60,216 nucleotides of DNA from Opitutaceae bacterium. Its GTDB lineage: Bacteria > Verrucomicrobiota > Verrucomicrobiia > Opitutales > Coraliomargaritaceae. The DNA lies in assembly GCA_051252415.1 (NCBI GenBank), contig JBPOGA010000023.1, forward strand, positions 1 through 60,216, in the 5' to 3' direction. Position numbers and translations under genes: made by a program. Positions 27,423 through 28,909 of this stretch are shown piece by piece (position 1 is the stretch's first letter; each line of letters opens with the position of its first letter). The notes under the pieces were generated by a model. The model was not told the DNA's origin. It did not search any database and saw only the letters and a list, made by a program, of their open reading frames with translations.

Positions 27423-27505
27423 CATGATCAGTGGGATTTGAACCCACAAGTCCTTGCGGACAACGGTTCCTTAAACCGACGCGTTTACCATTTCGCCATG
27501 ATCGT
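27423..27505 (-). tRNA. tRNA-like gene 1, type II (long variable arm, 3-bp D-stem), Leu-like: anticodon loop UUAAGGA gives a nominal AAG anticodon; C2-A71 mismatch
   Basis: Canonical T-arm GTGGG-TTCAAAT-CCCAC. D-loop AATGGTAAA. Variable hairpin GTCC-GCAA-GGAC. Acceptor ACGATCA/TGATCAT with one mismatch. Possibly a pseudogene. Confidence 0.55.
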
Positions 27506-27575
27506 TACTGTCCGGGAGTTGAACCCGGGACCAATGGAGTTACATCCATAGCTCTACCTTCTGAGCTAACAGTAT
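27504..27575 (-). tRNA. tRNA-like gene 2 with a 6-nt anticodon loop (stem ATGGA/TCCAT, loop TGTAAC), A1-A72 mismatch and discriminator C; identity unassigned
   Basis: Canonical D-arm TAGCTCAGAAGGTAGAGCT and T-arm CCGGG-TTCAACT-CCCGG. The anticodon loop is one nt short as read from the sequence. Confidence 0.45.
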
Positions 27576-27578
27576 CGG

Positions 27579-27651
27579 AGTAACTAGCTGGATTTGAACC
27601 AAGCTTCTTCTTGAATAACAAGACGCTCTGACCGGGCTGAGCTATAGTTAC
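27579..27651 (-). tRNA. tRNA-like gene 3 with a perfect 7-bp acceptor (GTAACTA/TAGTTAC) but a 5-nt anticodon loop (TCTTG-TTATT-CAAGA); identity unassigned
   Basis: Canonical D-arm TAGCTCAGCCCGGTCAGAGC and T-loop TTCAAAT. The anticodon arm is aberrant as read. Confidence 0.45.
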
Positions 27652-27750
27652 ATTGTGGATTCCGCTTAGAACGTCGAGCGGAACGCTGAACTCTAACAGG
27701 TGAAACCCGAGAGTGCCGCGCCGCCGACCGGAAGTGAGAGAATGTATGTG

Positions 27751-27889
27751 TAGGGGTTGTGCTTGTCTGAGATCATGAGCCTGTCGAATGGCGAAGACCG
27801 AGACAGGCTAAGGAGCTTAGGACTTTCGAAGGCTTCAAGTCGTTCTACCTTTTTGGCCATTGCCCGGTCCGCGCGAGCACGGCCCCTAC
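27751..27889 (+). repeat. Structured element family F4, copy 1 (139 bp), in a gap of the tRNA array: terminal 16-bp stem gtaggggttgtgcttg/cgagcacggcccctac with G-U wobbles on the plus strand
   Basis: Paralogue of 28231-28370. It shares tgtaggggYtKtgcttgtY..gatcatgagcYtgtcgaatggcgaagac....cggtccgcgcRagcacggcccctacg. Compensatory changes keep the stem. Internal hairpin gcctgtc/gacaggc. Confidence 0.75.
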
Positions 27890-27979
27890 GTTTTAATAAT
27901 CCTGCGGGAGAAGGAATTGCACCTTCTCTAGTGAAGTCAAAGTTCACGGTGCGTCTGTTACACTATCCCGCATGAAGGT

Positions 27980-28051
27980 TACCCGTAGCCAGAATCGAAC
28001 TGGCGTTTTCGCGTCGAAAGCGCGATGTCTTAACCACTTGACTATACGGGC
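27980..28051 (-). tRNA. tRNA-Glu (anticodon UUC), canonical
   Basis: GCCCGTA-TA-GTC-AAGTGGTTAA-GAC-A-TCGCG-CTTTCGA-CGCGA-AAAC-GCCAG-TTCGATT-CTGGC-TACGGGT-A. CCA is not encoded. Confidence 0.85.
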
Positions 28052-28056
28052 TAAAT

Positions 28057-28133
28057 TGGTCGCAGAGGTGGGATTTGCACCCACAGCTTCGGGCGTATGA
28101 GACCCGCGCTCTAACTGTTTGAGCTACTCTGCT
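28057..28133 (-). tRNA. tRNA-Met/Ile2 (anticodon CAU), non-canonical: D-loop AAACAGTTA lacks G18G19, T-loop TGCAAAT has G55, A1-G72 mismatch, CCA encoded
   Basis: AGCAGAG-TA-GCTC-AAACAGTTA-GAGC-G-CGGGT-CTCATAC-GCCCG-AAGCT-GTGGG-TGCAAAT-CCCAC-CTCTGCG-A-CCA. Confidence 0.7.
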
Positions 28134-28138
28134 TGAAA

Positions 28139-28214
28139 TGGTCGTAGAACTGGGACTTGCACCCAGACTCTCAGGCTTATCAAGCCCGTGCTTTGCTACT
28201 TAAGCTATTCTACT
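28139..28214 (-). tRNA. tRNA-Ile (anticodon GAU), non-canonical: D-loop AAGTAGCA without GG, T-loop TGCAAGT with G55, A1-G72 mismatch, CCA encoded
   Basis: AGTAGAA-TA-GCTT-AAGTAGCA-AAGC-A-CGGGC-TTGATAA-GCCTG-AGAGT-CTGGG-TGCAAGT-CCCAG-TTCTACG-A-CCA. Confidence 0.7.
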
Positions 28215-28230
28215 TAAATGGTCGTAATTT

Positions 28231-28370
28231 GTAGGGGCTTTGCTTGTTCCGGATCATGAGCTTGTCGAATGGCGAAGACGGTGACAGTTTTGAGGCAATT
28301 GGAGTTTCGATGGCATGTCGAACTCGGTTCGCTTTCTACATTCTGCGGTCCGCGCAAGCACGGCCCCTAC
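28231..28370 (+). repeat. Structured element family F4, copy 2 (140 bp), in the second gap of the tRNA array
   Basis: See 27751-27889. Terminal stem gtaggggctttgcttg/caagcacggcccctac. Confidence 0.75.
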
Positions 28371-28378
28371 GCTTAAAG

Positions 28379-28453
28379 TGGTGCCACATCATGGACTTGC
28401 ACCATGGCCTACCGGTTAAAAGCCGGCTGTTCTGCTTGTTGAACTAATGAGGC
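28379..28453 (-). tRNA. tRNA-Lys (anticodon UUU), non-canonical: D-loop AACAAGCA without GG, T-loop TGCAAGT with G55, U4-U69 mismatch, CCA encoded
   Basis: GCCTCAT-TA-GTTC-AACAAGCA-GAAC-A-GCCGG-CTTTTAA-CCGGT-AGGC-CATGG-TGCAAGT-CCATG-ATGTGGC-A-CCA. Confidence 0.7.
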
Positions 28454-28457
28454 AAAT

Positions 28458-28581
28458 TGGTAACCAAGAGAGGATTTGTTCCGAGGAGCGTAGCGACGAC
28501 ATGACCGGGCTCGAAGAGAACCGGAACACCTCCACTGAACTGCTTCTGAGGCAGCTGCCTCTTCCGTTGGGCTACTTGGTC
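28458..28581 (-). ncRNA. tRNA-like element A (about 124 nt): 7-bp acceptor stem GACCAAG/CTTGGTT, discriminator A, CCA, D-arm GCC-CAACGGAAGA-GGC, anticodon-like arm GCTGC-CUCAGAA-GCAGU (CAG, Leu-like), then about 70 nt containing a CCGG-closed hairpin instead of a normal variable arm and T-arm
   Basis: Paralogue of element B. The acceptor stems covary fully (GACCAAG/CTTGGTT versus CGTGGAG/CTCCGCG), as does the inner hairpin (CTC-TTC-GAG versus CGC-AAA-GCG). Confidence 0.5.
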
Positions 28582-28591
28582 ACATAGTGAT

Positions 28592-28667
28592 TGGTGGGAG
28601 CACATGGAATCGCACCATGACTTTCTGAACTTCAATCAGACGTGCAGACTATCTACACTATACTCCC
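28592..28667 (-). tRNA. tRNA-Phe (anticodon GAA), non-canonical: D-loop AGATAGTCT without GG, T-loop TGCGATT with G55, CCA encoded
   Basis: GGGAGTA-TA-GTGT-AGATAGTCT-GCAC-G-TCTGA-TTGAAGT-TCAGA-AAGT-CATGG-TGCGATT-CCATG-TGCTCCC-A-CCA. Confidence 0.7.
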
Positions 28668-28672
28668 TTAAA

Positions 28673-28804
28673 TGATCGCGGAGACAGGACTTGTTCCGAG
28701 GAACGTAGTGACGACAAGACCGGGCGCTTTGCGAACCGGAACACCGACTTTTTAAGAATAGCCGGTGTCCAAGACCGGAGCCTTACCAATTTGGCCACTC
28801 CACG
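28673..28804 (-). ncRNA. tRNA-like element B (about 132 nt), paralogue of A: acceptor CGTGGAG/CTCCGCG, D-arm GCC-AAATTGGTAA-GGC, anticodon-like arm CCGGU-CUUGGAC-ACCGG (UGG), 3' end ...A-UCA instead of CCA
   Basis: Same architecture as A, with compensatory base changes in the acceptor stem and inner hairpin. Confidence 0.5.
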
Positions 28805-28818
28805 TGATGATTGAAAAT

Positions 28819-28909
28819 TGGTGGACAGGGCAGGACTCAAACCTGCAAGGCAAAGAGATGCTCCGGGTTTACAATCCGGTGCCGCTATCAATTACGGCTC
28901 TACCTGTCC
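28819..28909 (-). tRNA. tRNA-Tyr (anticodon GUA), type II (91 nt with CCA), non-canonical: D-loop without GG, T-loop TTTGAGT with U56
   Basis: GGACAGG...CCGGA-TTGTAAA-CCCGG...variable hairpin GCA-TCTCTT-TGC...GCAGG-TTTGAGT-CCTGC-CCTGTCC-A-CCA. The D-arm register is irregular. Confidence 0.6.

Follow-up and report, generated by a model that had tools for sequence, protein, structure and literature searches.

In some bacteria, the RNA ligase RtcB is encoded beside a Band-7 protein and a predicted ‘b7a-tRNA’, a system which is credited to Burroughs and Aravind 2016 and whose RNA the citing preprint describes as never experimentally validated (bioRxiv 10.1101/312249). L-arrays are horizontally spread arrays of tRNA genes that have been reported in, among others, Verrucomicrobia (Santamaria-Gomez et al., 2021, PMC8421152). 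Translation inhibitors induce the L-array (trn operon) of Anabaena sp. PCC 7120, whose regulation is shared with rtcB; in vivo aminoacylation has been shown for 23 of the 26 tRNAs, and three of the 26 array genes are pseudogenes (PMC8421152). A tRNA array unit is defined by a minimum of 20 tRNA genes and of 2 such genes per kb (Tran et al., 2016, PMC4758250), and the array units of mycobacteria are discussed as putative anti-defence systems (PMC12803027). Here we describe a related locus on a stretch of 60,216 nucleotides (hereinafter the window) from an Opitutaceae bacterium of the phylum Verrucomicrobiota (contig JBPOGA010000023.1, assembly GCA_051252415.1). It consists of a minus-strand array of 13 tRNA and tRNA-like genes (27423-29109) followed on the same strand by a 460-nt leader and by genes for an SPFH/Band-7 protein, a 331-aa protein with a GNAT-like fold, and RtcB. 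The array belongs to kinds that have been described before, namely the Band-7-associated tRNA-RtcB systems and the L-arrays; its interesting part is a compensated A18/G55 corner, that is, an elbow in which the tertiary partners G18 and U55 are jointly replaced.

The 13 genes were delineated by the combination of ARAGORN, the Rfam model RF00005 and a fold of the Tyr gene (Table 1). ARAGORN called 11 tRNAs on the minus strand of 27423-29109, Tyr-GUA not being among them, and RF00005 at its gathering threshold of 29 bits retrieved 10 array genes with scores of 43-70 bits. A relaxed run added two genes with long inserts, Leu-CAG (28461-28581, 33.5 bits), which thereby joins the ten as a member of the family, and Pro-UGG (28676-28804), which at 28.9 bits stays slightly below the threshold. 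Tyr-GUA also remains below 29 bits, its single Rfam match being of the tRNA-Sec type (26 bits), and yet it folds into a class-II cloverleaf and has an orthologue in the related locus L006 (see below). A preceding reading of the sequence alone had recognized about eleven tRNA or tRNA-like genes at 27423-28909; the array is as it proposed, and both the count and the upstream limit have to be extended. From 5′ to 3′, the order is Asn, Tyr, Pro, Phe, Leu, Lys, Ile, Met, Glu, Gln and then three tightly packed tRNA-like genes, all co-oriented within 1.7 kb (about 8 genes per kb) and, where no palindromic element intervenes, separated by 0-10 nt. CCA is encoded by eight of the ten 5′ genes, and their anticodons are kept across related genomes. 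A Y RNA, a ribozyme or another curated RNA was ruled out as the identity of the array, given that the Rfam search of 27000-29600, with E-values up to 1, returned tRNA-clan matches and noise only.

When the genes are compared with canonical elongator tRNAs (G18G19; U54-U55-C56; 7-nt anticodon loop), Glu alone has all of these features. The departures comprise A18/G55 in five genes, A19/U56 in Tyr, the A54/U58 swap in Asn, and anticodon loops of 5 or 6 nt in two of the tRNA-like genes. Most of this had been noticed by hand folding, and the covariance-model alignments, which speak to the concern that such folds might be off-register, preserve the register and place G opposite U55. The same alignments agree that G18G19 is missing in Met, Ile-GAU, Lys, Phe and Tyr, that the first four carry G55 and Tyr carries U56, that Met and Ile-GAU have a non-canonical A1-G72 pair, and that Glu is regular (GG with TTCGATT); they add Gln to the list of genes that lack GG and have G55 (TGCRANT). 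The pattern of tandem G55 T arms gave one match in the window and none in 100 shuffled versions of it.

Table 1. Coordinates of the array genes, intervening elements and adjoining module (positions of the window)
Feature	Position	Strand	Description
tRNA-Asn(GUU)-like	29010-29109	-	T loop ATCGTGG (A54/U58 swapped); 24-nt palindromic insert in 3′ acceptor strand; CCA encoded
tRNA-Tyr(GUA), class II	28819-28909	-	T loop TTTGAGT (U56), D loop GA (G18 A19), CCA encoded
tRNA-Pro(UGG)-like	28676-28804	-	48-nt palindromic insert 28694-28741 between G55 and C56
tRNA-Phe(GAA)	28592-28667	-	T loop TGCGATT (G55), D loop AG for GG, CCA encoded
tRNA-Leu(CAG)-like	28458-28581	-	Short variable region; 48-nt insert 28479-28526 in T loop; CCA encoded
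tRNA-Lys(UUU)	28379-28453	-	T loop TGCAAGT (G55), D loop AACAAGCA, CCA encoded
tRNA-Ile(GAU)	28139-28214	-	T loop TGCAAGT (G55), A1-G72 mispair, CCA encoded
tRNA-Met(CAU)	28057-28133	-	T loop TGCAAAT (G55), A1-G72 mispair, CCA encoded
tRNA-Glu(UUC)	27980-28051	-	Canonical, GG with TTCGATT, no encoded CCA
tRNA-Gln(UUG)	27902-27972	-	T loop TGCAATT (G55), D loop TAACAGACG, no encoded CCA
tRNA-like gene 1	27577-27651	-	D and T arms canonical; ‘anticodon’ loop of 5 nt; CCA not encoded; no spacer to next gene
tRNA-like gene 2	27503-27576	-	Body nearly invariant across genomes; 6-nt anticodon loop in the window
tRNA-like gene 3 (AAG)	27423-27505	-	13-nt variable arm; 3-nt overlap with gene 2; no CCA; CAG in the L008 orthologue
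Conserved long hairpin hp85	27652-27735	-	TTCCGGTCGGCGGCGCG...CGACGTTCTAAGCGGAA; immediately upstream of the three tRNA-like genes; 28 pairs, 12 compensatory, 5 genomes
Palindromic hairpin element A	28231-28371	.	About 141 nt; termini CGTAGGGG...CCCCTAC
Palindromic hairpin element B	27750-27890	.	Second copy of element A
Palindromic hairpin element C	28914-29000	.	Termini GCGTAGGGC...GCCCTACGC; between Asn and Tyr
Conserved element upstream of array	29246-29335	-	AAACGTC..TAAATGGCGTCCAAACC..GAGAGGGGCGAAAC; about 90 nt; in all five Verrucomicrobiota loci
Long leader, array to Band-7 gene	26961-27422	-	Conserved blocks AACCGCCCAAGGGG, GGATACCG, CTCCCTGCGGGCCCATTTTC
SPFH/Band-7 protein	25845-26960	-	371 aa from internal ATG; PF01145, E = 1e-29
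Protein of unannotated family	24620-25615	-	331 aa; GNAT-like predicted fold
RtcB RNA ligase	22934-24331	-	465 aa; PF01139, E = 3e-89

Few features of tRNA are more conserved than the G18-U55 and G19-C56 contacts, which form the surface that the ribosome, RNase P, T-box riboswitches and a number of modification enzymes recognize. In the array, every T loop with TGC (G55) is paired with a D loop that has AG at the usual GG site. Orthologous arrays were taken from four related Verrucomicrobiota genomes (loci L006, L008, L010 and L013) via the adjoining 331-aa protein, and the comparison shows both sites switching together in four tRNA families. The Lys orthologue combines GG with TTCGAAC in L008 as against AG with TGCAAGT in the window and L006, and the Phe orthologue has GG/CTCGAAA in L013 as against AG/TGCGATT in the remaining genomes. 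For Gln, GG/TTCGA in L006 and L008 is opposed to AG/TGCAATT in the window, and Glu presents the reverse distribution (GG/TTCGATT in the window; AG/TGCAA in L006 and L008). The array of L010 (Cerasicoccus frondis) has canonical T loops. Because G55 is coupled to AG, with both sites switching jointly between orthologues, the contact between the D loop and the T loop seems to be under selection, maintained via alternative bases. The elbow changes are therefore read as compensated tertiary variants and not as decay, and the A18/G55 tRNAs should still fold into the L shape. The ‘non-canonical core features’ of the sequence-only reading are thus present, although most of them point to tRNAs that remain foldable.

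The same pattern was sought more widely by a scan for two tandem G55 T arms in one genome per species and, separately, in the viral contigs of IMG/VR, each of which yielded at least 120 loci. Among the 1,204 tRNAs of the 120 genome loci listed, all of which were selected for carrying G55, 672 combine AG with G55, 313 combine GG with U55 and 76 are discordant (odds ratio 165); the corresponding numbers for the 120 viral loci listed are 658, 605 and 73 (odds ratio 365). The genome loci listed belong mostly to Verrucomicrobiota and also to Planctomycetota, Cyanobacteria, Myxococcota, Deinococcales and Gemmatimonadota, and the viral matches listed include contigs of 100-275 kb. Two further positions vary in concert in this large set. 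The 19-56 pair covaries, with U56 accompanied by GA (as in Tyr of the window), G56 by AC or AU, and A56 by AU, and in 59 tRNAs A-U replaces U-A at the 54/58 pair, which is also the state of Asn in the window. The G55 tRNAs of the genome loci listed fall into 48 anticodon classes, and 85% of them encode CCA. The repeated paired switches between orthologues are stronger evidence than these counts. In the literature that was searched, including works on L-arrays, tRNA arrays and T loops, no mention of an A18/G55 elbow variant was found; as far as could be checked, neither this coordinated replacement nor its broad distribution among the arrays of bacteria and phages seems to have been described.

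The variant is a property of the array and not of the lineage or organism because the stand-alone tRNAs of the window, Cys-GCA and a second Met-CAU near 59.7 kb, have G18G19 with TTCGATT and TTCAAAT T loops. The second Met-CAU (59883-59957) is canonical, so that at least CAU is redundant within the window. Together with the recurrence of the module and with the existence of G55 arrays elsewhere, the canonical stand-alone tRNAs bear out the initial proposal that the array is accessory and not the housekeeping set. The array resembles L-arrays in several respects: the genes form a long co-oriented array with short spacings, CCA is encoded, the ‘Leu’ gene has a short variable arm, rtcB is a neighbour, and the distribution of G55 arrays is patchy and consistent with horizontal transfer (several phyla, including Verrucomicrobia, and viral contigs). 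The array nevertheless differs from the Anabaena trn operon in the number of genes (13 vs 26), in its location on a chromosome instead of a plasmid and in the lack of an HNH gene in the window, and the two have no DNA similarity. Moreover, the T loops of the Anabaena array are nearly all canonical, with Glu-CUC alone having TGCAACT, whereas G55 dominates in the window. By the published definition of a tRNA array unit, the density is sufficient (about 8 per kb) and the number of genes is not (13 vs at least 20). Tandem A18/G55 tRNAs are likewise present in the tRNA clusters of phages (at least 120 IMG/VR contigs), although the window itself is devoid of phage genes.

The three genes at the 3′ end of the array are of a different nature. 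They lack an encoded CCA and abut directly or overlap slightly. Anticodon loops of 5 or 6 nt had initially been ascribed to all three, which holds for 27577-27651 (5 nt) and 27503-27576 (6 nt) but not for 27423-27505, which has a 7-nt loop (AAG) on a weakened stem. In the five-genome consensus, tRNA-like gene 1 forms a cloverleaf with a 5-nt loop, in which 14 of the 22 pairs display compensatory changes. The anticodon of tRNA-like gene 2 is GAA, GAU or CAU in three relatives and GAA in the fourth, with C33 in place of the usual U, and the stem is maintained throughout by compensatory changes. Given these shortened or genome-variable anticodon loops, the three RNAs cannot be ordinary decoders. 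They are conserved, structured and selected non-decoding tRNA mimics and the best candidates for the Band-7-associated tRNA.

The tRNA-like genes are adjacent to and co-oriented with the Band-7 gene in the window (where the genes end at 27423 and the open reading frame starts at 26960), in the four orthologous Verrucomicrobiota loci and in L012, a locus of the Bacteroidota species Tunicatimonas pelagia. All of these loci have the array, Band-7 and the 331-aa protein in this order, and some of them have RtcB as well. RtcB is encoded in the same cluster in the window, L006 and L012, and none was found within 10 kb on either side of L008, L010 and L013. The linkage extends beyond these close cases: of the 120 G55-array genome loci listed, 31 include RtcB within their 8 kb and 11 include Band-7; for both proteins, linkage to the arrays is far above chance. 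Between the compared genomes, the flanking protein is 45-63% identical, and the anticodons of the 5′ genes stay conserved. In T. pelagia, three Asn-like tRNA-like genes (L012, 8262-8704), at least one of them with a GUU anticodon, precede Band-7; common to them is a 14-nt insert, CCGTCGTGGCGCGA, which immediately precedes U54 in a T arm that is canonical in all other respects.

The locus resembles the Band-7-associated tRNA/RtcB system, for whose RNA Rfam has no family, in the tRNA-like genes directly upstream of Band-7, in the presence of RtcB in the cluster and in the occurrence in Verrucomicrobiota and Bacteroidota. It is set apart by three mimics accompanied by ten near-normal tRNAs, as opposed to a single non-coding RNA, and by additional components, namely the GNAT-fold protein, the long conserved leader and the conserved hairpin. 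There is also a likeness to the rsr-Y RNA (YrlA)-rtcBA operon of Salmonella, in which RtcB and a presumed scaffold protein are accompanied by an RNA that contains a tRNA-like module; unlike that operon, the locus has no Ro60/TROVE protein, no Y-RNA stem and no Rfam Y-RNA match, and the scaffold would be Band-7.

The three blocks of the leader are conserved across the Verrucomicrobiota loci. In L012, the GGATACCG block is approximate (GGGTATAG in the alignment), with GGATACCG itself occurring elsewhere in the leader. The leader may be an undescribed structured 5′ untranslated region or non-coding RNA. The fold of the 331-aa protein is GNAT-like, with Foldseek E-values of 0.2-1, and no match was found in Pfam, NCBIfam or the PDB sequences; the fold lends no support to its being a splicing endonuclease or a nucleotidyltransferase, both of which had been considered. 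In about half of 80 metagenome loci (L140-L219), this family directly adjoins RtcB, mostly without Band-7 or tRNAs, and tRNAs were found upstream in five of the 36 loci with enough upstream sequence. From its gene neighbourhoods, the family appears to be a partner of RtcB that lacks annotation in the searched libraries.

Upstream of the array, the conserved element at 29246-29335 has no Rfam match and is preceded by a small open reading frame and a terminator-like hairpin (29382-29442). In order, 29382-29661 comprises an AT-rich stretch with the motif GGGCGGAGC, the small open reading frame (MKPHTHIQMPCGSYL...) and a second, mini-open reading frame (ATGAAA...) that runs into the hairpin, which has a T-run. 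L006, L008, L010, L013 and L012 are laid out alike, and the arrangement could be an attenuator that senses translation. Between this region and Asn, the window has an inverted repeat with 45-nt arms that is rich in ATAAGCG and TTAGCGG (29125-29231). Similar repeats in L006 (5990-6060 and 6480-6530) flank an open reading frame of the PDDEXK_3 family that is inserted in the array, and the repeat of the window may be an empty remnant of an insertion of this type.

Three genes (Asn, Pro and Leu) and three spacers of the array are interrupted by palindromic elements. The two spacers of 141 nt and the one of 87 nt have the common termini CGTAGGG...CCCTACG, and all three (elements A, B and C) are absent from every orthologous array compared. 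The insert in Asn is a 24-nt palindrome, GACTCGACTGAGCTCGCCGAAGTC (29017-29040), which is missing in the four orthologues, and its removal leaves a perfect acceptor stem, CCGCCGA-G-CCA. The 48-nt hairpin inserts of Pro and Leu are 84% identical and are both located exactly between G55 and C56; the former is also found at the same T-loop position in the L006 orthologue, and the Leu orthologues of L006 and L008 have no insert and a TTCGART T loop. Sequences about 83% identical to the 48-nt insert (40/48) are present in two IMG/VR contigs (L135, about 7850-7900, and L137, about 12200-12250). The viral copy lies inside an open reading frame of 156 aa related to the HAD family, on the opposite strand, to which 48 nt would add 16 codons. 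In the window, the doubled UvrA open reading frame (30077-36118, 2013 aa) includes long near-perfect hairpins at 30912-30985, 31766-31863, 32993-33145 and 34678-34747, one of which carries the termini of the array spacers (GTAGGGG...CCCCTAC), and all of them look like palindromic elements that this protein gene has taken up in frame. The same open reading frame has, at 32420-32579, an 8-nt tandem repeat (GAGGTTYT; 14 overlapping registers) that encodes PQNLRTSK repeats.

Because the spacers are missing from the orthologous arrays and their termini recur in the UvrA open reading frame, they were ruled out as conserved parts of the system and reclassified as mobile palindromes. Inserts and spacers alike are accordingly read as small palindromic mobile elements, and not as introns or parts of the system, with mobility deduced solely from presence or absence between orthologues. 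A protein-coding role of the spacers of about 150 nt was dismissed as well, the conserved blocks of the two copies being, by eye, in different frames, and the single match of a 17-mer of spacers A and B in viral contigs had no similarity past the seed and is attributable to chance. Rickettsia palindromic elements, small palindromes whose insertion sites include RNA genes and, in frame, protein genes, offer the nearest parallel: here, too, hairpins of 24, 48 and about 141 nt interrupt tRNA genes or spacers and occur in open reading frames. The host phylum is unrelated, and the sequences are presumably unrelated as well. In the array of C. frondis (L010, 5060-6600), the inter-tRNA spacers consist of a repeated pair of hairpins (CCAAGG..CCTTGG followed by GAGATGC..GCATCTC).

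The window is a chromosomal contig of a metagenome-assembled genome, and the genes next to the locus are ordinary chromosomal ones (the doubled UvrA, RecD2, panB, gpsA and gdhA). Flanking integrase or phage genes, which arrays of atypical tRNAs had led one to look for, were not found in the 60 kb, and neither were plasmid genes; a plasmid or phage origin by DNA similarity was rejected as well, with no match to the array in plasmid and phage collections. Further from the array, three tandem paralogous open reading frames of about 600 aa each occupy 11440-16890, two of which (11440-13242 and 13273-15069) have weak asparagine-synthase-like matches only, and several open reading frames at 16943-19089 and 20712-22505 have no family match.

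Based on the above considerations, the locus is best explained as an accessory, chromosomally fixed tRNA operon of the L-array type that constitutes the RNA part of a Band-7/SPFH-RtcB module for RNA repair or translation stress. We assign a probability of about 0.7 to this identification and general role, and a much lower one to any single mechanistic step. The array would be switched on by translational or RNA-damage stress and transcribed as a single precursor, to be processed by RNase P and 3′ nucleases. Once tRNA-targeting nucleases had cut the housekeeping tRNAs, the G55 tRNAs could serve as a reserve or decoy pool, while RtcB would reseal the 2′,3′-cyclic-phosphate and 5′-OH ends of cleaved tRNAs, with the mimics, the Band-7 oligomer and the GNAT-fold protein as possible cofactors or scaffolds of repair. 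The altered elbow might mark this pool apart from the housekeeping tRNAs, such that readers of the G18/U55-G19/C56 platform would meet a different surface; since U55 is missing, the G55 tRNAs would not be substrates of TruB. Several points weigh against this explanation. Its functional steps are inferred throughout, and a scan for promoter and terminator consensus sequences gave nothing above the shuffled expectation. The counts from the large sets are phylogenetically non-independent and come from loci chosen for carrying G55. In this genome, inserts disrupt three of the ten 5′ genes and the T stem of Pro is poor, which means that some of the array may no longer be functional. Finally, RtcB adjoins G55 arrays in only two of the 120 viral loci listed, so that an association with RtcB is not inherent to the elbow variant. 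A more far-reaching version, in which A18/G55 together with the 19-56 and 54-58 variants defines a distinct and widespread ‘alternative-elbow’ class of tRNAs that mobile arrays of phages and bacteria carry because the altered corner insulates them from readers of the canonical platform (tRNA toxins, TruB and other modification enzymes, quality control), and that in Verrucomicrobiota are wired to an RtcB/Band-7/GNAT-fold machine with the mimics as cofactors, is put forward tentatively, the odds being clearly against it.

The interrupted Asn, Pro and Leu genes, the weak T stem of Pro, the A1-G72 mispairs and a 6-nt loop of tRNA-like gene 2 that is confined to the window genome could also be understood as damage, together with the odd core positions and short loops, in a horizontally acquired array that is turning into pseudogenes, all the more so as three of the 26 genes of the Anabaena array are pseudogenes (PMC8421152). 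Such decay is unlikely to account for the array as a whole, however: the changes in the D and T loops are compensated, with joint switches in four families of orthologous tRNAs; compensatory changes maintain the cloverleaf pairing of the mimics (14/22 pairs in tRNA-like gene 1); the 5′ anticodons are conserved even though the flanking protein has diverged to 45-63% identity; and the gene order is the same across two phyla. An origin as counter-defence cargo of phages, with replacement tRNAs that escape the tRNA nucleases of hosts or competitors and work independently of the Band-7, GNAT-fold and RtcB genes, coincides with the preferred explanation on the point of replacement tRNAs and is suggested by the abundance of tandem G55 tRNAs in viral contigs, including those of 100-275 kb, by the close copy of the 48-nt insert in a viral contig and by the view of mycobacterial tRNA array units as putative anti-defence systems (PMC12803027). 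We consider it doubtful, given 60 kb that contain no phage, integrase or plasmid genes, the lack of a DNA match in phage and plasmid collections, and the linkage to Band-7 and RtcB, which recurs across genomes far above chance.

The proximity of RtcB, known from archaea and animals as the tRNA-splicing ligase and here encoded 3 kb downstream on the same strand, raises the question of whether the T-loop inserts of Pro and Leu and the acceptor insert of Asn are introns, to be cut out by an endonuclease before RtcB joins the exons. The shared position of the Pro insert in L006 and the perfect acceptor stem of Asn after removal of its insert would fit. This is nevertheless highly improbable: no splicing endonuclease was found nearby, no bulge-helix-bulge motif was found (no search being aimed at one), the Leu orthologues have no insert, and the 48-nt element is also inside a phage protein gene, to which its length would add 16 codons in frame; this, along with the similar palindromes in the UvrA open reading frame, is the behaviour of a mobile palindromic repeat and not of an intron. 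The GNAT-like fold, for its part, brings to mind enzymes for which the tRNAs would be dedicated substrates, as aminoacyl donors in the manner of Fem or L/F-transferases or as acetylation targets in the manner of the TacT/AtaT toxins, with RtcB in a secondary role. That the 331-aa family is linked mainly to RtcB and usually without a tRNA array (tRNAs upstream in 5/36 loci), that it was found in none of the 120 G55-array genome loci listed, and that no acetyl-CoA-binding glycine motif was seen by eye among its invariant residues make this very unlikely.

Under the preferred explanation, an accessory tRNA operon coupled to a Band-7-RtcB module, the locus supplies concrete parts for a repair system that so far has been a prediction: three tRNA mimics, a hairpin, a leader and a GNAT-fold partner of RtcB. 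More generally, over 1,300 G55 tRNA genes in at least 240 bacterial and viral loci exchange G18/U55 for A18/G55 in a coordinated manner. They constitute a natural test set for which requirements the elbow has to satisfy for tRNA function and for why the tRNAs of mobile arrays differ from those of the housekeeping set.

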